Shown: positions 2,873 to 59,367 of the stretch, one piece after another
How the letters are laid out: each line of letters begins with the position of its first letter
How positions within the stretch are numbered: the stretch's first letter is position 1
Origin: a virus
Lineage: Duplodnaviria; Caudoviricetes
Direction: 5' to 3' (one strand)
Virus record (IMG/VR): IMGVR_UViG_3300032303_002590
DNA: 64,000 nucleotides
Position numbers and translations under genes: made by a program
The notes under the pieces: model-generated
What the model saw: only the letters and a program-made list of their open reading frames with translations
Told to the model about the DNA's origin: nothing
Database searches by the model: none

Positions 2873-2932
2873 ATGGAAAATACATTTAATTTAAAAAAAT
2901 TCCTTGCTGAAGGGAAATTATTAAAAGAAGAA
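2873..2932 (+). repeat. 60-bp leader cassette, copy 1 (MENTFNLKKFLAEGKLLKEE)
   Basis: Near-identical DNA at 16856, 56210 and 59110. Confidence 0.95.
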
Positions 2933-3562
2933 CAAACCTCGAATTTAGAACAAATAAACCCTGATTTTACCTCAGATAAAATAGTTACTACTTCTAATTA
3001 CGCTAATGATAGGGGACAACTTAAATCTCAATTTGGTAAACAATCCTATGATTTTGGAGGAAGTGAAGATCCTATTCCAAATTCTATAATAGTAGATGAT
3101 GCTGAACCTGAAGGTGATAATGAATGGATTCAATTCGATTTAAATAAAGTTGGAAAATTTCCACCAAAAAAATATATCAATTCAACTTTTACTATAGATT
3201 ATATTGATAATCAAAATAATTTAATAAAAACTATCCTAAACTCATTAGAAAGTGGTGGTATATTAGTTGTTTCTGAAAATGTGAAATCTGTATCTGATTT
3301 TTACAATAAACTGAAAAATAATTTTGATATATTAGAAGTTTATGATTTTATGGGTGATTTAAACGAAGGTGTATATACTCCCGAAGAAAGACAAGAAATG
3401 GCTGATAATATAAGAAAAAAATATACCATAAATGGTGTATACTATGATCCTTATTATCCCCTCCCACCTGGACTTAAATATGATAATGAAATGGGGGGTG
3501 ATGGTGAAGACGAAGAAGTAGATGAAAATTCAGTAATATCCCTAATTTTAAAGAAAAAATAA
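2873..3562 (+). CDS. MENTFNLK-leader protein with SAM-dependent methyltransferase-like domain (start revised to ATG 2873)
   Basis: Leader repeat, then YDFGGSE / IIVDD / IQFDL / LNSLESGGILVVSE in class I methyltransferase order. Confidence 0.5.
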   Translation: MENTFNLKKFLAEGKLLKEEQTSNLEQINPDFTSDKIVTTSNYANDRGQLKSQFGKQSYDFGGSEDPIPNSIIVDDAEPEGDNEWIQFDLNKVGKFPPKKYINSTFTIDYIDNQNNLIKTILNSLESGGILVVSENVKSVSDFYNKLKNNFDILEVYDFMGDLNEGVYTPEERQEMADNIRKKYTINGVYYDPYYPLPPGLKYDNEMGGDGEDEEVDENSVISLILKKK

Positions 3563-3566
3563 AATT

Positions 3567-4010
3567 ATGTGGTTATACGAAAATAAAGAAATAAAAGAAT
3601 TAACAGATATGCCCGAATCTACATTCGGGTTTATTTATGAAGTAACTCATTTACCTACAGGAAGAAAATACTTAGGTAAAAAGCAATTAATATCTGTTCA
3701 AAGAAAAGCTTTAGGTAAAAAAGAATTAGCTTTAATTACTGATAAAAGAGCTTCTAAAAAGAAAACTGTTACTAAAGAAAGTGATTGGAAAACCTATTAC
3801 GGATCAAATCCAACAATTAAACAGATGTTAAAAGAAGGTAAACAAGACGAATTTACAAGAGAAATTATTATGTTTGTACCTAACAAAAAATTATTAACTT
3901 ACTATGAAGACAAATATCTTTATATTAATGAGGTAATAGAAAAAGGAGATACATATTTTAATGACAATATTTCAGGTCGTTTCTTTAAAAAAGACTTTAT
4001 AAAAAACTAG
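3567..4010 (+). CDS. GIY-YIG-family endonuclease-like protein
   Basis: FGFIYEVT...RKYLGKK, YYGS, FTREI, YFNDNI. Confidence 0.7.
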   Translation: MWLYENKEIKELTDMPESTFGFIYEVTHLPTGRKYLGKKQLISVQRKALGKKELALITDKRASKKKTVTKESDWKTYYGSNPTIKQMLKEGKQDEFTREIIMFVPNKKLLTYYEDKYLYINEVIEKGDTYFNDNISGRFFKKDFIKN

Positions 4011-4036
4011 GATACCACAAAATAATTTATTATATT
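4008..4036 (+). promoter_or_regulatory. Class-2 (early/middle-type) promoter TAGG-N19-TATATT
   Basis: Same motif with an exact 19-nt spacer at 9 intergenic sites. Confidence 0.65.
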
Positions 4037-4055
4037 ACCATAAAAACCTCTTATT

Positions 4056-4208
4056 ATGAAACGTTACAGCTTATATAATAAAAATTTAACCGAGGCTATT
4101 AATTCAATTAAATCGGCTAATTTAGAAGGAGCAATATTATTTTTTGCTTCTCAAAAAAGATTAGAAATTGATCAATTTCATAAGTTATTTGACGTAAGAG
4201 AATCATAA
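4056..4208 (+). CDS. Small hypothetical protein (50 aa, MKRYSLYNKN...), not in the ORF track
   Basis: ATG after a class-2 promoter; fills the gap before primase. Confidence 0.6.
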   Translation: MKRYSLYNKNLTEAINSIKSANLEGAILFFASQKRLEIDQFHKLFDVRES

Positions 4209-4224
4209 ATAGAAAAACAAGGTT

Positions 4225-5160
4225 ATGATAAACGGAATATTATTAGGTCTAGTACAATCTGTACTAGGAAAGGGTAATGCTACCTCAAAAGGTAATTATG
4301 CTTTTCACTGCCCTTTATGTAATCATAGAAAACCCAAATTAGAAATTAATTTAGTACCAACAACTAAGAATGAAAATCCTTGGCATTGTTGGGCTTGTGA
4401 TATTAAAGGAAAAACAATTGCTTCTTTATTTAAATCAGTAAAAGCAGATAGAGAAAAATATTCTGAATTAAATTCCATCTTAGGTACCACAACTAAAATA
4501 GACCAATCAGATTTTAACCTTAACGTAGAATTACCGAAGGAATATAAACCATTATATAATCTGTCAAAAACAGATATTATCGCTAAACACGCGTTATCTT
4601 ACGTTAAAAAACGTGGTATAACACCCACAGATATACTCAAATACCAAATAGGATATTGTGAGATAGGAAGGTATGCTAATAAAATTATTATACCCAATTA
4701 TGATGCTGAAGGTAAATTAAATTACTTTATAGCTCGTTCATTTGAAAAAGATCCGTCTAGAAAATACGATGCAGTATCTACTGATAAGAATTCAATAATT
4801 GGATTTGAAAATTTAATAAATTGGAACTTACCTGTTATACTTTGTGAAGGAGCATTTGATGCAATTGCTATTAAAAGAAATGCAATACCTTTATATGGTA
4901 AAACAATGTCAAAACAATTAACTAAAAAATTATTGTCTAATAATATAAAAGACATATATTTAGCCCTGGATAGTGATGCTTTAAAAAGTACACTTAAAAT
5001 TGCCGGAGATCTACTCCACTCAGGAAAACAATTACATGTTGTGAAATTAGAAGGTAAAGACCCATCAGATATGGGCTTCGAACATTTTACACATTTAGTA
5101 CAAAATTCTCAAGAATTTACCTTTTCTGATCTTTTCTCACTCAAATTAGAAGTAAACTAA
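4225..5160 (+). CDS. DNA primase (Zn finger + TOPRIM)
   Basis: CPLC...WHCWAC zinc finger; LCEGAFDA, LALDSDA, KDPSD. Confidence 0.9.
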   Translation: MINGILLGLVQSVLGKGNATSKGNYAFHCPLCNHRKPKLEINLVPTTKNENPWHCWACDIKGKTIASLFKSVKADREKYSELNSILGTTTKIDQSDFNLNVELPKEYKPLYNLSKTDIIAKHALSYVKKRGITPTDILKYQIGYCEIGRYANKIIIPNYDAEGKLNYFIARSFEKDPSRKYDAVSTDKNSIIGFENLINWNLPVILCEGAFDAIAIKRNAIPLYGKTMSKQLTKKLLSNNIKDIYLALDSDALKSTLKIAGDLLHSGKQLHVVKLEGKDPSDMGFEHFTHLVQNSQEFTFSDLFSLKLEVN

Positions 5161-5947: not shown

Positions 5948-6700
5948 ATGATCAAACTAGCTACTTTATTAAAAGAAATACAAGGTACACCAAAAGCTAT
6001 ATTTTTAGCAGGTCCTGCTGGTAGTGGTAAGTCTACTTTGACTAAACAACTATTACCTTCCTCATACCAAGTTATTAATTCAGATGACACTTATGAAGAA
6101 CTTTTAAAAGCAAGTGGAATAGGTTTAAAACAAAAAGATTTTACTCCTGATCAATTATCACAAGCAGCTAAATTACAAGCACAAGCTAGAAAAACAACAC
6201 AAGATACATTAGCTAAATCCATCGAAGGTAAAAACAATATTATTATAGATGGAACTGGTGCTGCTTCAGGTCCTGTTTTAAAGAAAAAACAACAATTAGA
6301 GGATTTAGAGTACGAAACCTTAATGTTAATGATTTATGTTTCTCCTTTAACTTCACTTGAACGTAACCAAGAACGTGATAGAAGTTTAATACCCAGTATT
6401 GTGTTAAGAACATGGAGAGATGTTAATAAAAATATTAGTACTTACGAGCAAGCATTTGGAGATAATTTTATATTATTAAATAATGATTCTAAAGATTCAA
6501 ATAAAGGATTTTCACCCGAACTAATCAAACCCTTTACACAAGCCTCTTCTGCTATAGGAAAACCTAAAACACCAGAAGAAATGGCTAAATCTAAAGCTGA
6601 AAAAGATGCTTTGAATCAAGATATTGAATCAATGGTAAAAACTTTACCTAAATTTGATGATATAAGTTCTGCTAAATCTAAAATTCAAAATTTTATTTAA
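5948..6700 (+). CDS. P-loop kinase (zeta-toxin/AAA_33-like) with MIKLATLLKE leader
   Basis: GPAGSGKS, INSDD, IIDGTG, SLERNQERDR. Confidence 0.75.
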   Translation: MIKLATLLKEIQGTPKAIFLAGPAGSGKSTLTKQLLPSSYQVINSDDTYEELLKASGIGLKQKDFTPDQLSQAAKLQAQARKTTQDTLAKSIEGKNNIIIDGTGAASGPVLKKKQQLEDLEYETLMLMIYVSPLTSLERNQERDRSLIPSIVLRTWRDVNKNISTYEQAFGDNFILLNNDSKDSNKGFSPELIKPFTQASSAIGKPKTPEEMAKSKAEKDALNQDIESMVKTLPKFDDISSAKSKIQNFI

Positions 6701-8145
6701 TGAATATTGGTAGACAAATAGTACAAGAACTATTAGAAGGTACAGAAAAAACAGTAGCTATTTATGGTGGTGGTTTTAAACCACCTACAAAAGGTCACTT
6801 TGAAGTAGCTAAATTAGCTTTAGAAAGACATCCAAATATAGACGAACTTATAATATATGTTGGTAGTGGAGTAAGAGATGGTATTACACAACAACAATCT
6901 GTAACCATTTGGAATATTTATAAAACTAAACTATCAGATAAAGTTCAAATAGTTACTCCTGATGTTCCTCCTGTTAGAGCAGTATTAAGATATGCTAAAG
7001 ATAATCCTGATACTAAGGTAATATGGATCTTAGGAGCAAGAGAAGACAGAGAAGAGGATTTTACAGATATAGCTAAACGAACTAAATCTATAGCTCAATA
7101 CCCAAACCTAACAGTAGATATAATATCAACTCAAGGTGGTATTTCAGGTACTGCAGCTAGACAAGCACTTAATTCTTCTAAAGAAGATTTCTTTCAATTT
7201 TTACCTGATGAGGTAGGACAACAAAAAAATGATATTTATGATATTTTAACCAATAACCAGTTTGAAGAAAGATTTATTCCTGGTCCTTTATTACATGAAT
7301 CTAAAATATTAAACGAATCCTTTACCCCTCAAAAAGCTCCATTAATGAAAAGATTTGTGGAATATGCTTGTAATCATTTAGATATAGATGAGCCTAAAAT
7401 AATGATAATAAATTCTCCTGAATACACTCAGGAACATCATAGTTTTGGAGGTTATTTTCCTCAAGAACATAAAATAAACGTTGTAGTTCATAATAGAAAC
7501 ATGGCTGATATTTTAAGAACATTAGCACACGAATTAGTTCATCACCTCCAAAATTTAAATGGGATGGAATTAAATGGTGAGGATGGTTCTGATACAGAAA
7601 ATGAAGCTAATGCTAGAGCAGGAGTAATAATGAGAGAATTTGGACGTAGTAATCCTGAAATTTTTGAAAGTAAATTAAATGAAGCAATAGTTGGTGATAG
7701 GATTGAATGTGATAATTGTGGTTGGAGTTGGCCAATAGCAGATGGGGGTGATGATCTTTTTATTTGTCATAAATGTGGACACGACAATACTGAGGAATAC
7801 GATGTTGAAAATGAACAAGATTTAAAAGAATTTATTTCATTTTTAAAAGAATATTCTCAACAATTATCTGAAGGAGAATTAACTGAAGCTGAATATCATG
7901 GACGTAAAGTTCAACTTGGTAAAATAATGCAAGGTGATATTAAGAAATTTAAAGTATACGTTAAAAATAACAAGGATAAAGTAGTTAAAGTTAACTTTGG
8001 GTTTGGTGGTTCATCAGCTCATGGTAAAAGAATGAACATTAAAGTACACAATCCTAAAAGAAGAGCAGCATATAGAGCAAGACATAATTGTGATAACCCA
8101 GGACCACGTTGGAAAGCGAATTATTGGTCTTGTAGAAAATGGTAA
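6700..8145 (+). CDS. Multidomain protein: HIGH-type nucleotidyltransferase + HEXXH domain + Zn ribbon + basic C-terminal domain
   Basis: GGFKPPTKGH...ISGTAAR; RTLAHELVHH; CDNC...CHKC; RARHNCD...YWSCRKW. Confidence 0.7.
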   Translation: MNIGRQIVQELLEGTEKTVAIYGGGFKPPTKGHFEVAKLALERHPNIDELIIYVGSGVRDGITQQQSVTIWNIYKTKLSDKVQIVTPDVPPVRAVLRYAKDNPDTKVIWILGAREDREEDFTDIAKRTKSIAQYPNLTVDIISTQGGISGTAARQALNSSKEDFFQFLPDEVGQQKNDIYDILTNNQFEERFIPGPLLHESKILNESFTPQKAPLMKRFVEYACNHLDIDEPKIMIINSPEYTQEHHSFGGYFPQEHKINVVVHNRNMADILRTLAHELVHHLQNLNGMELNGEDGSDTENEANARAGVIMREFGRSNPEIFESKLNEAIVGDRIECDNCGWSWPIADGGDDLFICHKCGHDNTEEYDVENEQDLKEFISFLKEYSQQLSEGELTEAEYHGRKVQLGKIMQGDIKKFKVYVKNNKDKVVKVNFGFGGSSAHGKRMNIKVHNPKRRAAYRARHNCDNPGPRWKANYWSCRKW

Positions 8146-8148
8146 TAA

Positions 8149-8688
8149 ATGATATCAATAAGTAAACTTTTCGAAGAAGAAAAACCAAAAATAAATTACG
8201 ACATCTATTGTGATATGGATGGTGTTTTAGCAGATTTTGAAGGTCGTTTTGAACACTTTACAGGAATGTCTCCTGATCAATATAGAGCAGAAATGACTAA
8301 AAAATACGGTGAGAAAAAAGCTGTAGATATGTTTTGGGATTTAATTGATCATGAAGTTGGAGTAAGATTTTGGAGAGGAATGTCTTGGATGCCTGGTGGT
8401 AAAGAATTATGGAATTATATTAAACCTAATAAACCTACTTTACTTACTGCCCCTTCATATAATGATTCCAGCAAAATTGGAAAAACTTTATGGGTACAAG
8501 ACCACATCCCAGGAGCTAAAATGATATTTAAGCAAGCTAAACAGAAAGCTGATTTAGCAGGTCCTAATAAAATATTAATTGATGATAGAGAAGATACTAT
8601 TATGAATTGGAAATCCAAAAATGGTATCGGAATTTTATATAAAAATACAGACCAAGCAATAAACGAATTAAAACAATTAGGAATATAA
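8149..8688 (+). CDS. HAD 5'(3')-deoxyribonucleotidase-like protein
   Basis: YCDMDGVLADF, LLTAP, GKTLW, ILIDD. Confidence 0.8.
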   Translation: MISISKLFEEEKPKINYDIYCDMDGVLADFEGRFEHFTGMSPDQYRAEMTKKYGEKKAVDMFWDLIDHEVGVRFWRGMSWMPGGKELWNYIKPNKPTLLTAPSYNDSSKIGKTLWVQDHIPGAKMIFKQAKQKADLAGPNKILIDDREDTIMNWKSKNGIGILYKNTDQAINELKQLGI

Positions 8689-9284: not shown

Positions 9285-9899
9285 ATGAGCAAATTAGACT
9301 TAAAAAACATAATTAAAGAAAGTATTACTGATTACTTATCAGAATTAAACTCCGTTAATGAAAATGATCCTGCTGTGCCATCTGATTCTACAGGTATGGC
9401 TTTGGATATGATAAATAAAACTCCAACACAAACTACAAGTGGAAATCCTCTTAGAGAAAAATCTCCAGATATCGTATTAGAAAATAATATTTCTAAAGAC
9501 GGTAAACTTTATTTAGTTAAAGAAGCTTTAAATGAATCAACTGATTCAAATATGATAGAGGAAAAACTACTATTAGACTTGATTGGTGAAGGATATACTG
9601 GTGTTTTTAATGATAAAAACAAAGCCATGGCTCATAGTAAAAAAGCTCTTAAAGAGAGAGATTTACTAATGAAAGAAAATGTTAAAAAAGGTCAAGCTAA
9701 AATTGGTGGTTTAGAAAAACAAGTAGCTGATTTAAAAGCTCAAATGCAAAAATTAATTGATAGTCCTGAAATGAGAGGTGAATTATCAAACTATACTGCT
9801 AAATTAGAAAAAACTGAACAAGTATTAGAAAAATTAAAAGCAGCAATAGAAAAATCTTCTCCTAAAAAAGCAAAGAAAGAAACTAAAGATGATGAATAA
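9285..9899 (+). CDS. Putative internal head protein, coiled coil
   Basis: MSKLDLKNIIKES leader; coiled-coil C-terminus. Confidence 0.5.
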   Translation: MSKLDLKNIIKESITDYLSELNSVNENDPAVPSDSTGMALDMINKTPTQTTSGNPLREKSPDIVLENNISKDGKLYLVKEALNESTDSNMIEEKLLLDLIGEGYTGVFNDKNKAMAHSKKALKERDLLMKENVKKGQAKIGGLEKQVADLKAQMQKLIDSPEMRGELSNYTAKLEKTEQVLEKLKAAIEKSSPKKAKKETKDDE

Positions 9900-11292
9900 T
9901 CTTGAACTTTTAAAAAATCATTTATATAAGTTAATTAAAGAGGAACTTGAAGGTGGTGAAGAGGAAAAACAAGCAGGACTTGAAAAAGCTCTGTATGATT
10001 TAGTACTTGAACCTGCTGATTTGCAAGCCACTTTATCAGCATTATCCGATATCAAAAATTATGGTATTTATGCTAATAATTTAAGAGATCCTAAAATTAT
10101 TGCTAAAATATTTGGTCCACCTGTACCTGCAACTAAAGGTAGAGTAGCTAAAGAAACTTGGGACCAAAGTAATGAAAACGAAAGACTTTCCAAAATAATT
10201 GATATTAAAAGTAGAGTACCACAAGAATGGACTAAAGTAGAACAACAGCTACAAAGCAAATTCGATGATTGGTCTGTTGAAAATGATAACGATTCATTTA
10301 ATGAATTTATAATTACATTAGATTCTAAAGAATTACCAATGGATTTCTTTGGTAAATATGCTTCTACATTTTATCCAATGAAAACACCTGATAACTTGAA
10401 AAAGTATAGTGGTGTAATGGCTAAAGATAAAGATTTTGTTGTTAATGGAGATAAAATTATTTTCCCACAAAAGAAAAACCCATTTGAAACTAAAGATTAC
10501 TTAACTAAAGTACTTAAAACTATAATGGGTAATGCTAAACTACAATATAGCTTATCCCAACAAGAATCAGAAGGTCAACCAGCAACTACTTCAAATACAC
10601 AAGGTAAAGTTGAAAAAATTAACTTCGTTAAAACATTTGACTCACCTGAATTAGCAGCTAAATTTAAAAAATTAATACCAAAAGATTTTGCTGAAAAAAC
10701 TACTATTGAAGGTAATAAAATCACAGTATCCGATATAACAGACTCACAAAAGAAAAATTTAATAGCTGCTGCATTAAAATTTGCAGAATCACAACCTAAA
10801 AAGAAACCAATGAAAGAATCATTAAAAGAACAAATATCTCAAATGGTAAGAGAGGTATTGATTGAAAAAAAATTAACTAAAGCACAACTTGTAGCTAGAG
10901 ATAAAGAAGGAAAAGATATTAAAAAGAAAAATCCTAAAATGCCCGAAGGTGAAGCTTTTGCTATTGCTACTAAAAATGTAGAAAAGAAAAAAGCTGTAAA
11001 AGAGGATTTAGATTCTGCTTTATCTAAATTAGTTAAAGATGATGATGCTTCTGAATTAGTAGCTCTTATAAAAAATTTACCAAATGCAGCTAGAGAAAAA
11101 GTAGCTCAAATGCTTAAAATAGATTTAAGTAAAGGAGAAATGGAAGAAGCTCGTTTTCCAAAAGGAACAGACATTGGTAAAAAAGGACCTGGATTTAAAG
11201 CTGTAGAAAAAGCTGCTGAAAAAGAATATGGTTCAAAAGAAGCAGGACAAAAAGTAGCAGGTGCTATACTTAAAAAAGTAATGAAAAAATAA
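9889..11292 (+). CDS. Putative internal head (poly)protein
   Basis: LYKLIKEE leader; internal MKESLKEQI, VLIEK, AVKED and MEEAR segments. Confidence 0.5.
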   Translation: MMNNLELLKNHLYKLIKEELEGGEEEKQAGLEKALYDLVLEPADLQATLSALSDIKNYGIYANNLRDPKIIAKIFGPPVPATKGRVAKETWDQSNENERLSKIIDIKSRVPQEWTKVEQQLQSKFDDWSVENDNDSFNEFIITLDSKELPMDFFGKYASTFYPMKTPDNLKKYSGVMAKDKDFVVNGDKIIFPQKKNPFETKDYLTKVLKTIMGNAKLQYSLSQQESEGQPATTSNTQGKVEKINFVKTFDSPELAAKFKKLIPKDFAEKTTIEGNKITVSDITDSQKKNLIAAALKFAESQPKKKPMKESLKEQISQMVREVLIEKKLTKAQLVARDKEGKDIKKKNPKMPEGEAFAIATKNVEKKKAVKEDLDSALSKLVKDDDASELVALIKNLPNAAREKVAQMLKIDLSKGEMEEARFPKGTDIGKKGPGFKAVEKAAEKEYGSKEAGQKVAGAILKKVMKK

Positions 11293-11400: not shown

Positions 11401-11661
11401 ATGACAGAATCTACATTACGATACTTAATCAGAGAAGCAATAGAAGAAATTCATTTACAAAAACTATCTGAAAAATCTACTAATCCAACAGATAAAGTAA
11501 CTTTGGATATTCCACTTTTTATTCGTATGTTAGAATATGCGAGAGAGGATGCTCAAACTGATATGGATTTACATGATGTAACTGAAAAAACTATTGCTTT
11601 AAGCGCTAAAGGGAGAACTTTAACTATGGCTGACTATAATAAAATAGTAAGTAAAAAGTGA
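11401..11661 (+). CDS. Hypothetical protein with LRYLIRE leader
   Basis: MTESTLRYLIREAIEE; DIPLFIRMLEYARED domain. Confidence 0.6.
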   Translation: MTESTLRYLIREAIEEIHLQKLSEKSTNPTDKVTLDIPLFIRMLEYAREDAQTDMDLHDVTEKTIALSAKGRTLTMADYNKIVSKK

Positions 11662-11996
11662 TTAAATTAAGTCAATTAATAAACGAAATGGATTGTTGGG
11701 ATGGTAAAAAAATAGGCAATCCCAAAACTAAAATATCTTCTAAAACAGGTAAAAGAGTAAATAATTGTGTACCTATTAAAGAGGAAGAAGAAACATCTCA
11801 ATTAAATTTTCCTGATGGTTTTCAACCTGCAAAATCTGTTCCTCAAGGAGGAGCAATGTGTGCTAATTGTGCTAAATGGGATGAAAAAAATCAAGTTTGT
11901 AAAGGACAATACTATATTGAATGGAATGGTAATGGTGAAATACCTGCCGATCATACAGAATACGTTTGTATTTGGTGGGTAGATAAAAGAAAATAA
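11658..11996 (+). CDS. Cys-rich hypothetical protein with MIKLSQLINE leader
   Basis: CWDG...VNNCVP module and CANC...C...CIWW module. Confidence 0.6.
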   Translation: MIKLSQLINEMDCWDGKKIGNPKTKISSKTGKRVNNCVPIKEEEETSQLNFPDGFQPAKSVPQGGAMCANCAKWDEKNQVCKGQYYIEWNGNGEIPADHTEYVCIWWVDKRK

Positions 11997-11998: not shown

Positions 11999-12343
11999 AT
12001 GATATCATTAAAAAATTTATTAAACGAAGGTACTCTAGATAAAATATTCCACTTAGATGGAATATTAATTGTAGACGATACTAATAGAAATCAAAAAGAT
12101 ATTCTATCTGATGTTCGTTCTTTACCTGGTATTACAGTAGTAAGAAACGTAGAGATGGAACAAGATGCTACTTCACGTTATTTTAGAAGTAGACTAGAAA
12201 TAAAAATTGATCCTTACCCATACGTTAAACAAGATAAATTTGATCCTACAGATACTATCCAAGTAATATCAGATAATATTAGAAAAATACCTGGAGTAAT
12301 AGGATTTAAAGAACAAGGAGACGTAACAACAACACAAGACTAA
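11999..12343 (+). CDS. Hypothetical protein with MISLKNLLNE leader
   Basis: ORF in operon; leader motif. Confidence 0.6.
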   Translation: MISLKNLLNEGTLDKIFHLDGILIVDDTNRNQKDILSDVRSLPGITVVRNVEMEQDATSRYFRSRLEIKIDPYPYVKQDKFDPTDTIQVISDNIRKIPGVIGFKEQGDVTTTQD

Positions 12344-12346: not shown

Positions 12347-12637
12347 ATGACTAAATTAGAACTTAAAAAATTGATAAAAGAAACCATATTAAATGAAATG
12401 GTTAATACCCATCCAGTACATAAAAGTATTAATAATAAATTAATGCAAATTGCTAATCGTGAAAAAATGAATAGCGATGAAGACAAGGTTGTTGGGTATG
12501 TTTTTTGGGATAAACCCGAAGATCCTGAAAATTATCTTCAAACTAGAGTTTATTTAAATAAAAAAACAGGAGAAAGATATGTTAAACAAGTAGGTGATGG
12601 TGTAGGAGAAGATTTAAATCAACCACCAAATGACTAA
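12347..12637 (+). CDS. Hypothetical protein with MTKLELKKLIKE leader
   Basis: ORF in operon; leader motif. Confidence 0.6.
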   Translation: MTKLELKKLIKETILNEMVNTHPVHKSINNKLMQIANREKMNSDEDKVVGYVFWDKPEDPENYLQTRVYLNKKTGERYVKQVGDGVGEDLNQPPND

Positions 12638-14468
12638 ACTATCAATATTAAGAAGATTAATCAAAGAAGAGATTGAGGATTTCCAAAATTCTCAACCTTT
12701 GACTTTTGAAAGTGATCCATTAGAGTATATTCTTCAAAAGTATTCTTCATTAAATGATACATTAGAAGATTTAATGACACCACACTATAGAGATTTTATT
12801 TCTGGTGTATTTGTAATAGCTCCTAAACCAACTACATTTAGAGTTATACTTCATAATAAACAAGAATTTCTTTTAATTTATGGAGAAACTTGTTATACTG
12901 CTAAAATAGCAGGTAAAAAGTATTATTTAGAAAATTTATCTGAAGAAGAATTTGCTATTACTTCTATTGCTCAATTATTAGAACTAGGTTTACCTCCAGG
13001 AAGTACTGGACCTGAAAAACCAGAAGAAAACGAAGCAAACCCAACCGAAGAAAAACCAGCAGAAGAAGCACCAGAAGAAGAAACTAAACCAGAACCTGTA
13101 AAAGAAGGGGTAAAAAAAAACTTAAAATTCGTTATTAAGGAGGCAAGTTTATCACCTGCCGAATTAGAAAAACCATTTACTTCAAAATCCGAATTTAAAG
13201 ATCAATATAGTGATAGAGGTGAAAGATTTTTAGATAAAATAAAAAATCAACAACCTTTTGAATTAAATGATGGTACTCAAGTAGTTTTAGATCCTAAAGC
13301 AACTGCTGAAGCTATTAAAGATTTACAATCTAAAGATTACAAAACTTTAGGTAAAGGTAAAATCTTTATTGATACTGAAGGTAATGCTTATGGGTTATCT
13401 GCATTTAAAAAAACACCTGAATTTGGAAGTGGAGCAGGACAAGGTGGAGGAGCTGAAAATACTGATGTACAAGAATCTGCTCAAAGCGTAGTAAATTCTA
13501 TTGCCTATAAAATTTTAGGAAAAACTATTAAAGCTGAAGATTTAACACCTGAAAATTTAACCGCAGCATATGCTATAAGTGATGTTACTGCTGGATTAGA
13601 TTCTATTATAGAATATGTTACTACTAAAAAACAATGGACATCAACCTTTGTTAATACTGCAAATTTATTATTAAAAACTTTCCCAAGTAAATCTTTACAA
13701 CAACATAGAGGTTCTTCATTTGTAAAATCAATATATGGAGCATTTTCTGTTGCTAAAAAACAAGAAGGTAGTTCATTAAACAATGACAAATGGAACCCAG
13801 CTGATATTTGGATGGTAGATGAATCTATATTAGGAATGGAATTTCCAACTAATTTAGAAGAACTAAATGGAGTAATGGCTGATTTATATACTAATAAAAA
13901 ATTAATTGGTGTTTCATTAAAACAATTAGCCGGAGAAGGAGAAATTAAAGTCTATAATTTAGATAAGGAAGCTACTAAATCACATCAATATAAAGGATAC
14001 GAATCAAGAGCTACAAATAACAATACTGTTTTAAATTATGATGATGGATCTATTACATTCAGAACATTTAATTTTGCAGGTAATTTTGCAGGTGAAATAA
14101 AAGGTAAAAAAGCTGCTCATGGTAAAATAGGTCAGGGCCCTATTAATGATGTGTTAAAATTAAATGGGTTAACATTATTACCTAATGCTAAAGAAGTTCA
14201 AGATGGGTTTAAAAGCAATAATCAAAAGCTAATTGATGACTTTTATCAATCATATAAAGAAATAGTTGAAAATATTAACCCTGAACAATTTGATGAACTT
14301 GTAAAATCAAAAGATTTAAACTGGTTAACATCTAAGTATTTATCTACTAAATTAGCATTTATATTAAAATCATTAGAACCTGAAAAACAAAATGAAGTAA
14401 TATCAGATATGTTAAATTATGCTTCTTCATCAACAAAATCTAGTTCAGTATTTGTAAAAGTATCTTAG
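12630..14468 (+). CDS. Two-domain protein with C-terminal PD-(D/E)XK-like nuclease candidate
   Basis: LRRLIKEE leader; Pro/Glu linker; QESA...DKWNPADIW...LIGVSLK. Confidence 0.5.
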   Translation: MTKLSILRRLIKEEIEDFQNSQPLTFESDPLEYILQKYSSLNDTLEDLMTPHYRDFISGVFVIAPKPTTFRVILHNKQEFLLIYGETCYTAKIAGKKYYLENLSEEEFAITSIAQLLELGLPPGSTGPEKPEENEANPTEEKPAEEAPEEETKPEPVKEGVKKNLKFVIKEASLSPAELEKPFTSKSEFKDQYSDRGERFLDKIKNQQPFELNDGTQVVLDPKATAEAIKDLQSKDYKTLGKGKIFIDTEGNAYGLSAFKKTPEFGSGAGQGGGAENTDVQESAQSVVNSIAYKILGKTIKAEDLTPENLTAAYAISDVTAGLDSIIEYVTTKKQWTSTFVNTANLLLKTFPSKSLQQHRGSSFVKSIYGAFSVAKKQEGSSLNNDKWNPADIWMVDESILGMEFPTNLEELNGVMADLYTNKKLIGVSLKQLAGEGEIKVYNLDKEATKSHQYKGYESRATNNNTVLNYDDGSITFRTFNFAGNFAGEIKGKKAAHGKIGQGPINDVLKLNGLTLLPNAKEVQDGFKSNNQKLIDDFYQSYKEIVENINPEQFDELVKSKDLNWLTSKYLSTKLAFILKSLEPEKQNEVISDMLNYASSSTKSSSVFVKVS

Positions 14469-16855: not shown

Positions 16856-16915
16856 ATGGAAAACACATTTAATTTAAAATCATTCCTTGCTGAAGGGAAA
16901 TTACTAAAAGAAGAA
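16856..16915 (+). repeat. 60-bp leader cassette, copy 2
   Basis: Encodes MENTFNLKSFLAEGKLLKEE. Confidence 0.95.
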
Positions 16916-17194
16916 ATTCAAAACCTAGAACCTAAAATTCAAGCCTTTAAAAATTATGCAGAACCTAAAGTAGAAGACTTTAGAGACTTTTTACTATTTC
17001 TTGCTGAAGGTATGGGACATCACCAAGATTTTACTAAATATTCTGATATTGACTTAATCAAAATGGCTATTGAATTTGATGAGGAAGAATCAGGAAATGA
17101 CTGGTTAGAAGATAACTATGGAATTGATGTGTTAGATGGAGAGATAGCTTCATATAATGATGAAATAGAAACTTCTGGTAAAAGAGAAAGATAA
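16856..17194 (+). CDS. Acidic MENTFNLK-leader protein
   Basis: Leader cassette; D/E-rich body. Confidence 0.75.
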   Translation: MENTFNLKSFLAEGKLLKEEIQNLEPKIQAFKNYAEPKVEDFRDFLLFLAEGMGHHQDFTKYSDIDLIKMAIEFDEEESGNDWLEDNYGIDVLDGEIASYNDEIETSGKRER

Positions 17195-17842: not shown

Positions 17843-18805
17843 ATGAACATTAACGATAATTTTGATTTACGTAAACATAGAGATGCTTTATTAGCTGAAT
17901 CAACAATTAATGAAAGATTTGCTGACAAAATATATGATGTAAATCCTTTAACAGGTGAAAAAGAAAGAGTAATCTACGAAAATGATTTTGAAGTATCTAG
18001 AATGGGTATCTTTGATGATATTGATGGAGATTTAGAATATGAAGATGATAGAATAGGATACTTAGACGCTATTATCAAATATTGTACTAAACAAATGGAA
18101 GATATAGGTAATGATAATGGTGGGTTAGATGATATTGATTCTTCGGATGAAGAAGTTCCTCTAGAAGAAATGGCTAAATTAACTGGTGCTGGAGGTGTTT
18201 TTACAACTTTAGGAAAAAGAGCAGCTGATATTATCCAAAATAACCCGGAATTAGAAAAATCAGCTCTATTAAAAGCTTTAAATTCAGATCCTGAAATTGC
18301 TCAAATTTTAGATGCTAGTGAAGAAGAATTACATCAAAACCAAACAAATAAATTTGCTGCTTTAGTTCGTGGTTCAAGAGAATTAGGACAAAGAGGTAGA
18401 AAAGCAGATCCAAATAAACCAGCTGCTGAACCAAAAGCAAAAGTAGAAAAACCAACTTCACAAAAATTAAAAATAACTAACCCAAAAGCTAACGAAAAAC
18501 CTGTTTCTACAGTATTTGGTGGTGAAGAAAATGATGCCGAAGATATTGCTGATGAAATGGCTGCAACAAGAGCTGCTAAGGGTAATAAAAGATTAGGTAC
18601 GGCTGCTGAAAAATTAGCTCAAGTAACTAAAGAAATGAAAGCTTTAGTTCCTGCTTATCAAGCTGCTAAAGGTACTCCTAAAGAAGCTGCTATTGTAGCT
18701 CAATTAAAAGCTTTAACTGCTGAGAAAAAATCATTAGAAGCTAAAGTATACAAAGAACCAAAAGCATTAAGTGCTGCTGATTTGATGGGTGGAGAAGAAA
18801 TATAA
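17843..18805 (+). CDS. Putative internal head protein (acidic N-half, Ala/Lys-rich C-half)
   Basis: NFDLRKHRDALLAES leader variant; PLEEMAK junction. Confidence 0.5.
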   Translation: MNINDNFDLRKHRDALLAESTINERFADKIYDVNPLTGEKERVIYENDFEVSRMGIFDDIDGDLEYEDDRIGYLDAIIKYCTKQMEDIGNDNGGLDDIDSSDEEVPLEEMAKLTGAGGVFTTLGKRAADIIQNNPELEKSALLKALNSDPEIAQILDASEEELHQNQTNKFAALVRGSRELGQRGRKADPNKPAAEPKAKVEKPTSQKLKITNPKANEKPVSTVFGGEENDAEDIADEMAATRAAKGNKRLGTAAEKLAQVTKEMKALVPAYQAAKGTPKEAAIVAQLKALTAEKKSLEAKVYKEPKALSAADLMGGEEI

Positions 18806-20525: not shown

Positions 20526-22454
20526 ATGGTAGATACTTCATTTTTTGGTAGATTACAACGATTATTTTCAACAGACGTAGTAATAAGAAACGTTGGGGGT
20601 AACCAATTAAAAGTAATGGATACTGATCGTATTCAACAGCTTGGTACTATCCAAACAAACTCACTTTTTGACAGATACAATAAGGTTTATACTACAACAG
20701 GTGGTTTAAACTTCAACTTTAATAGCGATTTAACATATCCAACTACTCGTATCCAGTTGTATACTGATTATGAAATGATGGATAGTGATTCTATTATTGC
20801 TTCTACATTAGATGTATTAGCTGATGAGACTTGTTTAAGAAATGATATGGGAGAAGTATTACAAATACGTTCTTCTGATGAAACTGTTCAAAAGATATTA
20901 TATAACTTATTTTACGATATATTAAATATTGAATTTAATCTTTGGTCATGGACTCGTAATATGTGTAAATATGGAGATTTTTATCTAAAATTAGAAATAT
21001 CAGAAAAATTTGGTATTTTTAATGTAATACCATTCTCTTCTTATTCTATTATTAGATTAGAAGGTAGAAACCCAGAAAAACCACAAGAAGTAAAATTTAG
21101 ATACGATCCTACCTTTACATCACAACAATCACCTAACGGACCTACAGTAATGTCTTCATATACTCGTAATAATAGTGAAGCTATTGTATTTGATAATTAT
21201 GAAATGGCTCACTTCAGATTATTATCTGATTTTAACTATTTACCTTATGGTAGATCATATATTGAACCTGCTCGTAAAGTATTTAAACAATTAATGTTAC
21301 TAGAAGATGCGATGCTTATACATCGTATTGTTAGAGCACCTGAAAAACGTACTTTCTTTATTAATGTTGGTAATATTCCACCAAACGAGGTAGAAAACTA
21401 TATGCAGAAAACCATCAATAAGATGAAAAAAACTCCATATATGGATCCTCAAACAGGTGAGTATAACTTAAAATTTAATATGCAAAACATATTAGAAGAT
21501 TTCTATATACCAGTTAGAGGAGGAGATACAACAACTAAAATTGAAACTACAAAAGGTTTAGATTATACTGCAATTGAGGATGTTGAATACTTAAAAAATA
21601 AATTATTTGCTGCCTTAAAAATACCAAAAGCATATTTAGGATATGAAAGTGATTTAACAGGTAAAGCAACTCTTGCAGCAGAAGATATTCGTTTTGCTCG
21701 TACAGTAGAAAGATTACAAAAAATACTAATCTCAGAATTAACAAAAATTGCTTTAGTTCACTTATATTCACAAGGATATGATGGAGAAGCATTAACTAAT
21801 TTTGAATTATCATTAACTGTTCCATCTATCATATACGAACAGGAAAAAATTGCTTTATTAAAAGAAAAATCTGCATTAGCTACTGAGTTAATACAAAATA
21901 AAATTGTTCCAACTGATTGGGTTTATGATCATATATTTAACTTTAGTGAAAACGAATACGATGAGTATAGAGATCTAATTATAGAAGATGCTAAACGTAA
22001 ATTTAGAATTGATCAAATTGAAACTGAAGGAAATGATCCATCTAAAACAGGTGAAGCATATGGTACACCACACTCATTAGCATCACTTTATGGTTCAGGT
22101 AGATATCCAGGTACTAATGGTGTGCCAAAAGGATATGATGAAGATGGTGATACTTACCCTGATCAAATTTTAGGTAGACCAAAAGAAAAAGCATCAAATA
22201 TTAATACACAAGAAAATCCATTTGGTAAAGATAGATTAGGTAGAGATGGTATGAAGAATGGAGATAATGAAGCTAAAGGATTTAGAACTGCATATAAAGG
22301 TGGGTCTCCATTAGCATTAGAAAATGCAAGTACACAAGCAGTGTATCATCAAATCTCAAGTAATTTAAAAAATATGTTCCCACAACGTAAAGTAAGTTTA
22401 TTTGAAGAAAGTGACTTATTAAATGAGAATAACCTTCTAAAAGAAGACAAATAA
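20526..22454 (+). CDS. Portal protein (T4 gp20-like)
   Basis: LLEDAMLIHRIVRAPEKR, LEDFYIPVRGG, LFAALKIPK, EDIRFAR; follows TerL. Confidence 0.93.
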   Translation: MVDTSFFGRLQRLFSTDVVIRNVGGNQLKVMDTDRIQQLGTIQTNSLFDRYNKVYTTTGGLNFNFNSDLTYPTTRIQLYTDYEMMDSDSIIASTLDVLADETCLRNDMGEVLQIRSSDETVQKILYNLFYDILNIEFNLWSWTRNMCKYGDFYLKLEISEKFGIFNVIPFSSYSIIRLEGRNPEKPQEVKFRYDPTFTSQQSPNGPTVMSSYTRNNSEAIVFDNYEMAHFRLLSDFNYLPYGRSYIEPARKVFKQLMLLEDAMLIHRIVRAPEKRTFFINVGNIPPNEVENYMQKTINKMKKTPYMDPQTGEYNLKFNMQNILEDFYIPVRGGDTTTKIETTKGLDYTAIEDVEYLKNKLFAALKIPKAYLGYESDLTGKATLAAEDIRFARTVERLQKILISELTKIALVHLYSQGYDGEALTNFELSLTVPSIIYEQEKIALLKEKSALATELIQNKIVPTDWVYDHIFNFSENEYDEYRDLIIEDAKRKFRIDQIETEGNDPSKTGEAYGTPHSLASLYGSGRYPGTNGVPKGYDEDGDTYPDQILGRPKEKASNINTQENPFGKDRLGRDGMKNGDNEAKGFRTAYKGGSPLALENASTQAVYHQISSNLKNMFPQRKVSLFEESDLLNENNLLKEDK

Positions 22455-23356: not shown

Positions 23357-24077
23357 ATTAAAAGAATTAGTACTAAAACATCTAGCTGAACTTCTTGATG
23401 AAGAATCAGCTTCTGGTGACGCTGGAGGTTATTTAGGAATTAAAGCTTTTAAACCTAAATACGAAGCAGTTAATAAAGTATTTAATCGTAATCCTGCCCG
23501 TCCTAAAACAGCACAAGATACTAATTCACCTGCTGGATTTGAATCAATGCCTGATTCAGCTAAAGTTTATATAAAAGGTGGATTTAAAGTAGTTAAACCT
23601 GAAGAAAGAATTGATGCTAAGGATTTATGGAAAGGACAGCATTTAAATGAAGAAGAAAGAATAGCACATGCTCGTAAACACTCCTTTAAAAAACCTACAA
23701 AACAACATGAAACCTCTAAATCAGGACATGAAGATTTACCAAACCCCGATAAATATTTTGAACTAGTGAAATTTAAAATTGTAGATCCTAAGAAAACTAA
23801 AAAGAAAGAAGAACCACTTAATGAAGTTCGTTATTCTCAATTTAAATCTCAATCTAAAACTCGTACACCTCAAGAGCAATTACATATGGGTGTTAAACAA
23901 ATTCAACATAAATTAGATGAAATTAATAAATTAGTTGAGTTTGCTACTAGAATGAAAACTGAATTAAAAGGTGATGCTGATCAAATGAACTACTTAAAAC
24001 GTACTCATAATGCATTGTTTAAAATAAACGAAAGAATACAAGATATTAATAATAAAATAAAAGGTTTAACTGAATAA
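23343..24077 (+). CDS. Putative prohead core/internal protein
   Basis: LAELLDEES leader; internal HLNEE and PLNEV. Confidence 0.5.
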   Translation: MQIDKLKELVLKHLAELLDEESASGDAGGYLGIKAFKPKYEAVNKVFNRNPARPKTAQDTNSPAGFESMPDSAKVYIKGGFKVVKPEERIDAKDLWKGQHLNEEERIAHARKHSFKKPTKQHETSKSGHEDLPNPDKYFELVKFKIVDPKKTKKKEEPLNEVRYSQFKSQSKTRTPQEQLHMGVKQIQHKLDEINKLVEFATRMKTELKGDADQMNYLKRTHNALFKINERIQDINNKIKGLTE

Positions 24078-55289: not shown

Positions 55290-55388
55290 ATGGCTGAAGG
55301 TCTTATTGTTGGAATTATTATATTTGGATGTATCCTTATAATAATTGAGTATAAGGATTCAACTAATTCAAATAAAAATAAACTATGA
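55290..55388 (+). CDS. Small single-transmembrane peptide (32 aa, MAEGLIVGIIIFGCILIII...), not in the ORF track
   Basis: A-rich leader, late motif upstream, ATGA overlap with the next gene. Confidence 0.55.
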   Translation: MAEGLIVGIIIFGCILIIIEYKDSTNSNKNKL

Positions 55389-56206
55389 GCATCAAATTAA
55401 AAACAATACTCGATCAAATCCTAAAAGAAAGTACTGAAGAAAAAACATACACAGTTGATTACTGGTACCGATATGGAAATGATGATAAAGAAATGGACGA
55501 TATTGAAGTAAAAGCAACTTCTGAAGAAGAAGCAATTAAAAAAGCTAAAGAAAAAGCAAAAAGAGGTGCTATCCAATCTTCATTTAAAGCTAAAGAAAAA
55601 TCTATAAAAGAAGATTTTAAACGTTTTGACTTTCAAAACACTACAGGCGGGGGAGGTAGAAGATTTATCCCAAACCAAGGAATAATCCCTTCATCTATGT
55701 TTAATGATAAAGACTTTATGTTAAGCAATGATGGTACTAAACTTTACATGGATCCACTTTTAGTTAATGCTATTGTAAACAGCAAAACTTTAACTAATAG
55801 AGCAGCCCAAGTTAGATATCAAGAATTTAAAGAAAAAATGGGCCCTCATTTCCAACAATTTAAAAAAGGATTAGAAGGTAGATTATCTAAAGTTTTAAAA
55901 AGTGGAAAACCATTTGATGTATGGAATGGAACCATAATGACTAATAAAAAAGGACAAATTGTTTTCCCTTATAGTGATATAGGAACTATAGCAGAAAGTG
56001 AAGATAATCTTAGACCACAATTACATACCCTTGTTGGTAATGAAATGAGATTAGGAAAAAGAGCAGATATGACTGGTTATTCTCATCACGAAGAAGAACA
56101 TAAAAAAGCAGAAAGAGAACTTAATACTTTCCTTAAAAATAATCCTTCTATGATGAATGATTTAGATACAGTTACAGATCATTTCATGAAACAATTATAT
56201 AAATAA
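55385..56206 (+). CDS. Putative internal head (poly)protein with MSIKLKTILDQILKE leader
   Basis: Leader motif; internal SIKED and TIAES. Confidence 0.55.
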   Translation: MSIKLKTILDQILKESTEEKTYTVDYWYRYGNDDKEMDDIEVKATSEEEAIKKAKEKAKRGAIQSSFKAKEKSIKEDFKRFDFQNTTGGGGRRFIPNQGIIPSSMFNDKDFMLSNDGTKLYMDPLLVNAIVNSKTLTNRAAQVRYQEFKEKMGPHFQQFKKGLEGRLSKVLKSGKPFDVWNGTIMTNKKGQIVFPYSDIGTIAESEDNLRPQLHTLVGNEMRLGKRADMTGYSHHEEEHKKAERELNTFLKNNPSMMNDLDTVTDHFMKQLYK

Positions 56207-56209: not shown

Positions 56210-56269
56210 ATGGAAAACACATTTAATTTTAAAAAATATCTTGCTGAAGGAAAATTACTAAAGGAAGAA
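56210..56269 (+). repeat. 60-bp leader cassette, copy 3
   Basis: Encodes MENTFNFKKYLAEGKLLKEE. Confidence 0.93.
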
Positions 56270-56533
56270 ATAACCTCAGACGTAGAAGACTATTTAATTA
56301 ACTTATATGATTTATCTTCAAGTGAAGAACATGAAGAAGGACAAGAAGTTAGTAGTATACTTTCTAGAGAAGAATATGGTGATCCTGAAGCATATGAAGA
56401 TGCTGAAATGTTTGATAAAGCCTACAATGAAATAGAACAACAAGGTGGCTCTATTACAATTGAAGGTCAACCTGATATTACATTCTCTATTCAAGGAGAC
56501 GATATAAAAATGGATTTCGTAGCAGAATACTAA
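56210..56533 (+). CDS. Very acidic MENTFN-leader protein
   Basis: Leader cassette; D/E-rich body. Confidence 0.75.
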   Translation: MENTFNFKKYLAEGKLLKEEITSDVEDYLINLYDLSSSEEHEEGQEVSSILSREEYGDPEAYEDAEMFDKAYNEIEQQGGSITIEGQPDITFSIQGDDIKMDFVAEY

Positions 56534-57945: not shown

Positions 57946-57965
57946 ATTCTTTTGCACCCTTTACA

Positions 57966-57973
57966 TATTTATT
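57966..57973 (+). promoter_or_regulatory. Late-promoter-like TATTTATT
   Basis: Upstream of the HNH gene. Confidence 0.55.
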
Positions 57974-57988
57974 GTAAATAATATAGAT

Positions 57989-58675
57989 ATGAAAATTTGT
58001 AAAAAGTGTAATATAGAACAAGATATAATTTTATTTGCTAAAAATAAAACAAAATCTGATGGTTTACATATATGGTGTAAAAAATGCACTAGTGAAAATA
58101 ATAAAAATAGATATTTACTTAAAAGTGAATATATTAAAAATCAAACCAATTCTTATTACAACTCAAATAAAGAAAACATTTTACCTAAGTTAAAAAAATA
58201 TAGAGAACAAGATTTTATTAAAGAAAAACAAAAAAATTATATTAAACAATGGGTATTAGATAACAAAGATTCATATAGAAAATATCAAAATTCTTATACT
58301 AAACAAAGAAGAAAAAATGATCTCTCCTTTAAAACTATAGAAAGTTTAAAAATACAGATTAATCATTTTTTAAAAAAAGAAACAAAAAACAAAAAAACTG
58401 AAGATTTATTAGGATACACTTATAAGGAATTTATAGAAAAATTAGGAGTAATAGAAGAAAACCAAGATTTAGATCACAAAATTCCAATTAGTTGGTTTAT
58501 ACCAGAAACTCCTATAAACATAATATGGGATTTAAGAAACCTGCAAATCACCTCAAGAAAATACAACAGAAAAAAGAAAAACACCTATGCCGATTCAGTT
58601 AATAAAGAATATCATCAAACAGTTATAAAATGGATAAAACATACACAGTTATCAATGATTTCAACATATTTATAG
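57989..58675 (+). mobile_element. Free-standing HNH homing endonuclease with N-terminal Zn finger
   Basis: CKKC...WCKKC; LDHKIPIS...NLQ...N..K. Confidence 0.8.
58667..58674 (+). promoter_or_regulatory. Late-promoter-like TATTTATA
   Basis: Inside the HNH 3' end, upstream of ATG 58708. Confidence 0.5.
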
Positions 58676-58707
58676 ATAATGAGAATCTTTCATTAGACTA
58701 TGATAAT

Positions 58708-59097
58708 ATGAATAACAAATTATTTTGTACGTTTTCAAGTAAGAACGACTTGGAAAGTACTTTATCCAATATACAATCAAAATATAAAATATTATTTAAT
58801 AAGATATTTGTTTTATATGTTGAATCAACCGAAGAATACGTTTGTACTTACAATATAGACCACAACAACATGAGTGGTGGATTATTAGAAAATACAATTT
58901 TATTACATAGAAAGAAAGAATCAAATACACTTTATACAATTAACGCTCTAAATGATTTAATAAAATCATTAAATGGCGGTCAATTAGATACTTCATTTAT
59001 GGTTAATTGGAAAGATTATCAAAACAGTATATTATTGACCCATGCAGGTGAATTAAAGAAATTAGATACTAAAATTTACAAAATAATTACACTATAA
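58708..59097 (+). CDS. Hypothetical protein (MNNKLFCTF...; start likely 58708)
   Basis: LLHRKKESNTLYTINALN; the revised start removes the overlap with HNH. Confidence 0.65.
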   Translation: MNNKLFCTFSSKNDLESTLSNIQSKYKILFNKIFVLYVESTEEYVCTYNIDHNNMSGGLLENTILLHRKKESNTLYTINALNDLIKSLNGGQLDTSFMVNWKDYQNSILLTHAGELKKLDTKIYKIITL

Positions 59098-59109
59098 TTT
59101 AATAAAAAA

Positions 59110-59169
59110 ATGGAAAATACATTTAATTTAAAAAAATTCCTTGCTGAAGGGAAAATGTTAAAAGAAGAA
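59110..59169 (+). repeat. 60-bp leader cassette, copy 4
   Basis: Encodes MENTFNLKKFLAEGKMLKEE. Confidence 0.95.
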
Positions 59170-59367
59170 GTAGAAAATATTACTACTCTTACAGAATTAA
59201 AAGCATATCTTGATTCATTAGTCAATGATTATGTTGCAGCTACTAGTGAAATCGCAGGAGAAGATTTAGATTGGGACGGAAATGGCTCTAATATGGGGAT
59301 AAATAAAACCGAATTAGTAAATGATTTTGTTGGTTATCTTACTGATGAAATACCATCTACAAAATAA
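59110..59367 (+). CDS. Acidic MENTFNLK-leader protein
   Basis: Leader cassette; acidic body. Confidence 0.75.
   Translation: MENTFNLKKFLAEGKMLKEEVENITTLTELKAYLDSLVNDYVAATSEIAGEDLDWDGNGSNMGINKTELVNDFVGYLTDEIPSTK

Follow-up and report, generated by a model that had tools for sequence, protein, structure and literature searches.

Short N-terminal leaders resembling T4 capsid-targeting propeptides on 17 unrelated proteins of a tailed phage

We analysed a 64,000-nucleotide stretch of DNA from a tailed virus of marine origin, distantly related to T4 (Caudoviricetes; IMG/VR record IMGVR_UViG_3300032303_002590), referred to here as the window, for which an initial annotation had proposed that about 17 unrelated genes share short, protease-cleavable N-terminal leaders that load their products into the phage head. 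We found all 17 leaders. They end in a hydrophobic-x-Glu motif that is enriched at N-termini, is carried by unrelated proteins, lies outside folded domains and recurs at the joints of fusion proteins. The leaders are probably capsid-targeting propeptides of the T4 type, which would load cargo proteins into the head, and the capsid-cargo interpretation is partly supported. In phage T4, the capsid-targeting sequence (CTS) is found on IPI, IPII and IPIII, which are internal proteins, and in the propeptide of Alt, and is removed by the gp21 prohead protease (PMC3012670, PMC9026906); within the IPIII decapeptide, residues 4 and 7 function in targeting and residues 8 and 10 in processing (PMC9026906). 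All genes of the window lie on the + strand and are named here by the position of their first nucleotide; G+C content is ~30%. Among cultured phages, the closest to this one is immuto (160 kb; grown on Flavobacterium sp. LMO8), a Flavobacterium phage whose likeness to the window at the DNA level is confined to the capsid gene (76%), with core proteins that are 40–60% identical.

Each of the 17 leader N-termini listed in the initial annotation was present at its coordinates, with the start of gene 2873 being an ATG rather than an upstream TTG, and that of gene 11658 being a GTG. We searched the window proteins with a strict pattern, [LIFMV]xx[LIFMVY][LIFMV]xE, ending by residue 22. This pattern was found in 15 of 68 proteins, compared to 2.33 ± 1.44 expected matches when residues 2–22 were shuffled (5000 shuffles, maximum 8) and 1.55 matches predicted from internal 22-residue windows; the proposed enrichment of the motif over shuffled N-termini was thus borne out. 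The Glu of the motif is residue 10 in four proteins, 12 in three and 13 in five, and residues 15, 18 and 20 in the others. The set of 17 genes consists of these 15 strict matches and two looser ones, 6700 and 17843, which fail the strict pattern and have hydrophobic-x-Glu at residues 13 and 19, respectively, with homologues in support. When the 17 leaders were aligned on the Glu as position P1, P7 was Leu in 13 and Leu, Ile or Phe in 16; P4 was Leu, Phe or Ile in 15 and hydrophobic in 16; and P3 was Leu, Ile or Phe in all 17, with the Glu always falling at residues 10–20. P1' was Gly, Glu or Ser in 13 of the leaders. Beyond their leaders, the 17 proteins are mutually unrelated, as had been supposed, with the sole matching pair aligning over 23 residues (E-value 0.009). 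We found no N-terminal motif in any tail, baseplate or replication protein of the window, confirming the earlier remark that tail genes and most replication genes lack leaders.

We also compared motif rates between phages, using one open reading frame (ORF) caller throughout. The motif was present in 14/68 (20.6%) for the window and 14/49 (28.6%) for the syntenic region of immuto. By contrast, the rate was 4/89 (4.5%; Fisher p = 0.002) for Staphylococcus phage K, a member of the Herelleviridae with 29% G+C, and 8/102 (7.8%) for cyanophage S-SCSM1. In the window, the leader genes are grouped a short way upstream of the head module. The same holds for a related 111-kb contig, G001, where nine motif ORFs lie within one 8-kb block directly upstream of the head genes.

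The leaders fall into three classes. Class A is a 20-residue tag beginning MENTFN, with potential sites at both Glu13 and Glu19, found on small, very acidic proteins; in phage SPN3US, extra cuts within propeptides have been proposed to help clear the fragments (PMC5694885). Class B is a 10-residue tag of the MI(K/S)L.. type with Glu10, and class C is a 12–13-residue tag of the form ..L+xLI+E. The four MENTFN genes are ~90% identical in DNA over exactly 60 nucleotides, corresponding to codons 1–20, together with a short run of A; we found no DNA conservation among the four genes beyond these 60 nucleotides, either upstream or downstream. Given this lack of upstream conservation, we discarded the idea that the MENTFN repeat is a promoter cassette (PeSL-like). 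Using a degenerate DNA pattern for the MENTFN leader, we identified 24 more genes in 19 viral contigs, and the 27 sequences downstream of MENTFN tags fell into 16 unrelated clusters, mostly with isoelectric points (pI) of 4–5. The class B pattern MIKLxxLLKE was found in at least 120 viral contigs. Among the matches listed, 108 of 122 begin at the first ATG after an in-frame stop codon and open an ORF of at least 40 residues, and 107 tails fell into 48 unrelated clusters that include homologues of the 5948 kinase (17/107) and NT5C proteins similar to 8149. A protease of family S77, to which T4 gp21 belongs, was encoded in all three complete genomes with MIKLxxLLKE among the matches listed, and in three of five fragmentary MENTFN contigs.

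Domain boundaries and structural models place the leaders outside folded regions. In three enzymes the Pfam domain starts 15–20 residues in, whereas in 17275 and 14555, two enzymes that lack leaders, no such stretch precedes the domain. The first of the three is a P-loop kinase (5948..6700; AAA_33 / Zeta_toxin-like in Pfam) with a class B leader (10 residues, Glu10), in which AAA_33 begins at residue 18 with position 2 of the profile hidden Markov model (HMM). The second, an NMNAT-like nucleotidyltransferase with extra modules (6700..8145; Pfam CTP_transf_like), has a 13-residue leader, and its domain begins at residue 21 with HMM position 1; matches to NMNAT itself are weak. The third is a 5'-deoxynucleotidase of the HAD fold (8149..8688; Pfam NT5C), also with a class B leader (10 residues, Glu10), and here the domain begins at residue 19 with HMM position 4. 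Across 56 homologues of this NT5C protein, Glu10 is at least 90% conserved, with variable neighbouring residues. In the AlphaFold model of NT5C (mean predicted local distance difference test score, pLDDT, 93.5), residues 1–16 lie outside the fold, which starts at residue 18; residues 1–10 have an average pLDDT of 51, and residues 9–12, spanning the predicted cut, score below 50. The leaders are therefore portable add-ons outside folded domains.

The same motif is found between modules, far from any start codon. A 907-residue fusion protein of immuto contains a domain homologous to 6700; directly in front of it, near residue 286, is a sequence ending in LAE that can be aligned with the 6700 leader. 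In 6700 itself there is a candidate internal joint at residues 378–384 (nucleotides 7831–7851), and the module C-terminal to this joint is homologous to a separate immuto gene. The product of 12630 (12630..14468) consists of a 13-residue class C leader, a domain A, a disordered acidic linker, a joint and a domain B. Residues 672–797 of an 841-residue immuto protein are homologous to its leader plus domain A, with the motif kept. A second copy of the motif lies within 12630 at residues 165–171 (nucleotides 13122–13142), directly before domain B. In the AlphaFold model, the acidic linker (residues 120–171) has a pLDDT below 50 and ends at the joint, and a confidently modelled domain B follows. 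Homologues of 486 residues have a different N-terminal piece of 45 residues, followed by a conserved ..L-K/T-E that immediately precedes domain B. In four homologues, the protein begins just past the hydrophobic-x-Glu in front of this domain. The occurrence of the motif at fusion joints rules out an explanation based on translation starts, and fits a protease site that separates modules.

A protease of the expected family is encoded within a T4-type head module. Gene 25797 (25797..26414) matches the S77 / T4 gp21 prohead protease family (Pfam PF03420, 5.7e-31) and its product aligns with T4 gp21 (PDB 5JBL) at 1.4e-19, in agreement with the initial annotation. Its ELDHP and GISSRG sequences, which we take to be the catalytic His and Ser motifs of the S77 (gp21) family, align with the corresponding segments of T4 gp21. 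Its N-terminus has LIE at residue 8, comparable to LIE-9 of T4 gp21. Upstream are a T4-type large terminase at 18891, identified by a Pfam match, and a portal protein of the T4 gp20 type (20526..22454; Pfam Portal_T4, 1.8e-68). Between portal and protease, at the position of T4 gp67 and gp68, lies 23343 (23343..24077), which encodes a basic protein of 244 residues with a 20-residue leader and an N-terminus homologous to that of immuto gp072. A further candidate processed head protein, outside the original list, is encoded at 24238..25794; its FLYE ends at residue 23, its immuto counterpart has FIAE at the same place, and it has one module in common with the 841-residue immuto protein. Between the protease and capsid genes, 26603 (26603..27619) encodes an acidic helical protein with 26 hydrophobic-x-Glu sites, whose last 120 residues share 53% identity with immuto gp067. 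Profile searches gave no family match for this protein; its position and composition suggest a role as scaffold. The immuto homologue, gp067 (immuto 40627–41868), is annotated as a 'DNA polymerase phi-like protein', and several further immuto annotations around it look doubtful. The major capsid protein (27658..29307; Pfam Gp23, 7.9e-74) is of the gp23 type with an N-terminal propeptide homologous to that of T4. Its maturation is expected at ILE52 or VVE61, since its residue 69 aligns with residue 16 of mature T4 gp23.

A homologue of one leader protein, and NMNAT-like proteins, are known from cyanophage virions. ORF90 of S-SCSM1 is a homologue of 12630 domain B (blastp 1e-35) and is annotated as 'virion protein'; the virion proteins of that record were assigned by mass spectrometry, which detected 45 proteins in CsCl-purified S-SCSM1 virions (PMC9602691). 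These include an NMNAT, left unexplained by the authors, and NMNAT-like proteins are also present in two other cyanophage virion proteomes, those of S-CBWM1 and an estuarine phage (PMC9602691). The S-SCSM1 NMNAT gene adjoins ORF90, and the first decapeptide of its product fits the T4 rule for residues 4, 7, 8 and 10. The N-terminus of the cytidylyltransferase of phage S-SSM5, which belongs to the same Pfam family as 6700 (PF01467), fits this rule too. In the cyanophage NMNAT, unlike in 6700, tag and catalytic domain are separated by a further ~90 residues, and no loading signal was suggested by the authors for the cyanophage NMNAT virion proteins. Separately, ORF30 of S-SCSM1 (44215–44535; 106 residues), just upstream of the terminase gene, begins with a decapeptide whose pattern almost matches that of the T4 tag; ORF30 is not among the reported virion proteome.

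The initial annotation had placed the leader genes in operons behind TATTTAT-type motifs. The motif ATATTTATA has 17 matches in the window, compared to 6.2 expected, and almost all are intergenic. Sites include 5925, 9262, 15890, 18868, 20500, 22460 and 24226, as well as 29365, 30082, 45237, 46284 and 51088. The motif often lies exactly 23 nucleotides before the ATG of structural operons, including those of terminase and portal, and resembles a late promoter whose transcripts would have a very short untranslated leader. For the leader genes, it is found 23 nucleotides upstream of 5948 and 9285, 38 nucleotides upstream of 17843 and, with one mismatch, 31 nucleotides upstream of 16856. The association with leaders thus holds for four of nine leader transcription units, but not for the other five, and structural operons have the motif too. 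A distinct motif, TTCGTATATT, occurs at ~43150–43190 and ~43455–43495, upstream of genes 43190 and 43495 in the tail module.

By analogy with T4, we suggest that the short amphipathic helix at the N-terminus, hydrophobic at P7, P4 and P3 and with Glu as P1, would bind the scaffolding core during prohead assembly on the portal. The 25797 protease, active inside the prohead, would then cut after the Glu and also at internal joints, and the mature proteins would be freed in the head, packaged with the DNA and delivered with it into the host. Core binding, cleavage, packaging in this phage and ejection are all steps that we infer.

Several observations weigh against this interpretation. Enrichment in G001 is modest, with 16 of 169 ORFs matching compared to 7.6 ± 2.7 after shuffling, and the loose motif has a background of 4–8% in other phages. 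For the first 100 kb of S-SCSM1, the motif did not separate virion proteins (1/30) from other proteins (7/75). A motif match alone is hence weak evidence, and some of the 17 leaders may be background. In many of the 486-residue homologues of 12630, the leader-like N-terminus belongs to a conserved mini-domain without the Glu. Similarity between 6700 and the S-SCSM1 NMNAT is weak (pairwise E-value 0.009). No match to ATATTTATA precedes the five leader units at 2873, 11401, 55385, 56210 and 59110. Lastly, packaging of housekeeping-type enzymes would be unusual and has no known benefit.

The tagged proteins might instead be processed parts of the prohead core or scaffold that are degraded or retained, rather than delivered cargo, with the motif being a gp21-type cleavage or assembly signal. 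The location of 23343 and 24238 where T4 has gp67 and gp68, the 26 sites of the scaffold-like 26603 protein and the adjacency of the main leader cluster to the head genes all favour such a role. However, recognisable enzymes (the kinase, the nucleotidyltransferase and NT5C) are tagged, small acidic tagged proteins are scattered among the replication genes, and T4 uses the same signal for proteins that are ejected (PMC3012670, PMC9026906). We consider it unlikely that the tagged proteins are core parts.

A little less likely still is that the leader is an N-terminal helix unrelated to the capsid, either a docking site for a phage or host factor or an inactivating pro-sequence, with the likeness to T4 being convergent. 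Amphipathic N-terminal helices are common, the strict motif has a 4–8% background in other phages, and virion membership in S-SCSM1 was not predicted by the motif. Against such a helix stand the nearly invariant Glu at residues 10–13, the co-occurrence of the tag with S77 protease genomes, the retention of the motif at internal joints that end disordered linkers, and the presence of homologues in virions. We see very little prospect that a modifying enzyme of the radical-SAM/SPASM type recognises the shared tag: the relatives do encode one radical-SAM protein, but it is QueE-like (7-deazaguanine synthesis), its gene lies tens of kb from the tagged genes (in G001, at 5 kb compared to 32–33 and 78–86 kb), and there is no radical-SAM gene within the 64-kb window. 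Just as improbable is an artefact of composition or translation starts in an AT-rich genome, or a mobile DNA cassette of promoter plus start in the case of MENTFN: although the genome has 30% G+C, Lys, Ile, Leu and Glu abound in its N-termini and the MENTFN leader shows conservation in its DNA, matches are 7–10 times fewer for composition-preserving shuffles and internal windows, phage K with 29% G+C gives 4.5%, the MENTFN conservation covers 60 coding bases and no upstream DNA, and the motif survives inside fusion proteins.

Under the capsid-targeting interpretation, the remaining leader genes would encode further cargo. The class A genes are 2873..3562 (leader 2873–2932; an acidic protein of 229 residues with a mature pI of 4.3), 16856..17194 (leader 16856–16915; acidic, 112 residues), 56210..56533 (leader 56210–56269; acidic, 107 residues) and 59110..59367 (leader 59110–59169; acidic, 85 residues); all four carry the leader DNA repeat, and 56210 lies among replication genes. 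A divergent class A leader of 19 residues, ending LLAE, is found on 17843 (17843..18805; 320 residues, no assigned function), the N-terminus of which resembles those of immuto genes at 32632 and 40242. Class B leaders of 10 residues are also found on 11658 (11658..11996; GTG start, 112 residues) and 11999 (11999..12343; 114 residues), and class C leaders of 12 residues on 9285 (9285..9899; 204 residues, no assigned function), 11401 (11401..11661; 86 residues) and 12347 (12347..12637; 96 residues). Leader-bearing homologues of 9285 and 11999 are present in G001 at 79517 and 83701, respectively. Two proteins of no assigned function have leaders of other lengths, namely 9889 (9889..11292; 467 residues, leader of 18) and 55385 (55385..56206; 273 residues, leader of 15). 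We found no homologue of 9889 or 17843 in a tblastn search of phage records, and a PHROGs search of the cargoes returned families of unknown function, with no functional name. The description of the set as including acidic proteins holds for the MENTFN class, but not for the other cargoes, whose pI ranges from 4.8 to 9.6.

When the 12630 model from AlphaFold (pLDDT 83) was compared with other folds, no match was convincing: the best Foldseek E-value was 0.03, and the best VIA-align Z score was 5.8, for domain A only. The protein atlas returned unnamed viral clusters only. The invariant motifs of its domain B (13143–14468), a Gly-rich loop, NPADIW and VSLKK, recall PD-(D/E)XK nucleases, with no fold or family match.

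Other features of the window concern the neighbourhood of these genes. The PhoH gene (29394–30080; Pfam match) encodes a protein that is 93% identical to immuto PhoH, compared to ~60% for the adjoining capsid, portal and terminase proteins, which suggests recent exchange or unusually strong constraint. A very basic protein of 48 residues, encoded at 24077–24223, is 80% identical to immuto gp085; its gene lies among head genes in the window and after the NT5C operon in immuto, and its product may be a DNA-associated head peptide. A SegE-like GIY-YIG gene (3567–4010) and a NUMOD-bearing gene (15913–16563) look like homing endonuclease genes. Tail and baseplate genes follow 3' of the head genes, and are followed in turn by replication genes (a Pol A fragment, gp32, RecA-like, FEN and DnaB). 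Three tandem paralogues of ~295 residues, starting MLD(F/L)S.., are encoded at 36106–38778, in the region of highest G+C (39.5%). At 56608–58675, the family A DNA polymerase match is confined to the C-terminal part of a 445-residue ORF that is followed by a Cys-rich ORF, and the polymerase gene may be split.

If the leaders do target the capsid, the CTS of T4 would be an instance of modular loading that is widespread in the abundant marine T4-like phages, rather than a peculiarity of T-even phages, and a simple sequence rule would predict capsid-borne proteins that act in the first seconds of infection, with anti-defence proteins and metabolism-resetting enzymes as candidates. About ten proteins of no assigned function would be flagged as probable early effectors, and the leaders would provide natural tags for loading foreign proteins into phages of hosts other than E. 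coli. Capsid targeting would also supply a route by which NMNAT-like enzymes come to be in cyanophage virions, where their detection has been left unexplained. More speculatively, the late operon 5948–8688 could be a pre-packaged enzyme kit that resets host NAD+ or nucleotide pools, and the leaders part of a modular loading system common to the lineage, here meaning marine T4-like phages of the Flavobacterium type and of cyanobacteria; we give this extension a low probability. Such a kit, if real, would enter the host along with the DNA in the opening moments of infection and might, for instance, pre-empt an NAD+-depleting defence. Short tags and hydrophobic-x-Glu joints would then allow exchangeable enzymes and anti-defence proteins to be loaded across the lineage, which would account for puzzling enzymes, such as the NMNAT-like proteins, in cyanophage virions.

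In the literature that we searched, we found no published description of such tags outside T-even and jumbo phages, none linking capsid-targeting sequences to cyanophages or Flavobacterium phages, and no proteome of immuto phages. In the jumbo phages phiKZ, 201phi2-1 and SPN3US, a protease related to gp21 cleaves numerous head proteins after Glu, as proposed here; their propeptides can have several sites, and paralogues can have identical N-termini (PMC5694885, PMC7411985). The tagged set of the window had been described as much larger than that of T4, and it does exceed T4's few; however, it is comparable to the processed sets of phiKZ and SPN3US. The jumbo-phage cleavage motif is (A/S/G)-x-Glu (PMC5694885), unlike the Leu, Ile or Phe at P3 of all 17 leaders, and jumbo-phage propeptides often exceed 100 residues, unlike the 10–20 residues of the leaders. 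We rejected the phiKZ/SPN3US propeptide system as a match on both motif and length. Moreover, the genomes of the relatives, at ~160–180 kb, are not of jumbo size. Encapsulin cargo peptides and the Dar packaging of phage P1 are similar in that unrelated proteins are brought into a shell of the HK97 fold by a short peptide at one terminus or by an N-terminal region. By contrast, encapsulin tags are C-terminal and are not removed, and Dar packaging involves ordered dependencies between proteins and no protease-removed tag.

A capsid-targeting sequence on T4 internal proteins was reportedly described by Mullaney and Black in 1996. The propeptides of these proteins are 10–19 residues long, and the tag is the only part they have in common (PMC9026906; PMC3012670). 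There are clear differences from T4. Compared to a handful of tagged genes in T4, there are ~17 in 64 kb here, with three distinct leader classes, and relatives have fusion proteins in which the motif forms the joint between modules. T4's internal proteins are both basic and small (PMC9026906), whereas among the cargoes here are enzymes of metabolic type and small proteins that are very acidic. In lineage and host group the phage is far removed from the T-even phages, and the system is proposed here from sequence analysis. Nevertheless, the four 10-residue leaders are, like the CTS, hydrophobic at residues 4, 7 and 8 with Glu at 10, a spacing that is preserved in the longer leaders when residues are numbered backwards from the Glu. 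As in T4, the tag ends in (L/I)-x-Glu on unrelated proteins, conserved tag DNA flanks variable cargo genes, and the phage encodes a protease of the same family together with a T4-type portal and capsid protein. Every feature of membership in the T4 CTS/gp21 system that sequence analysis can address was thus found in this phage.

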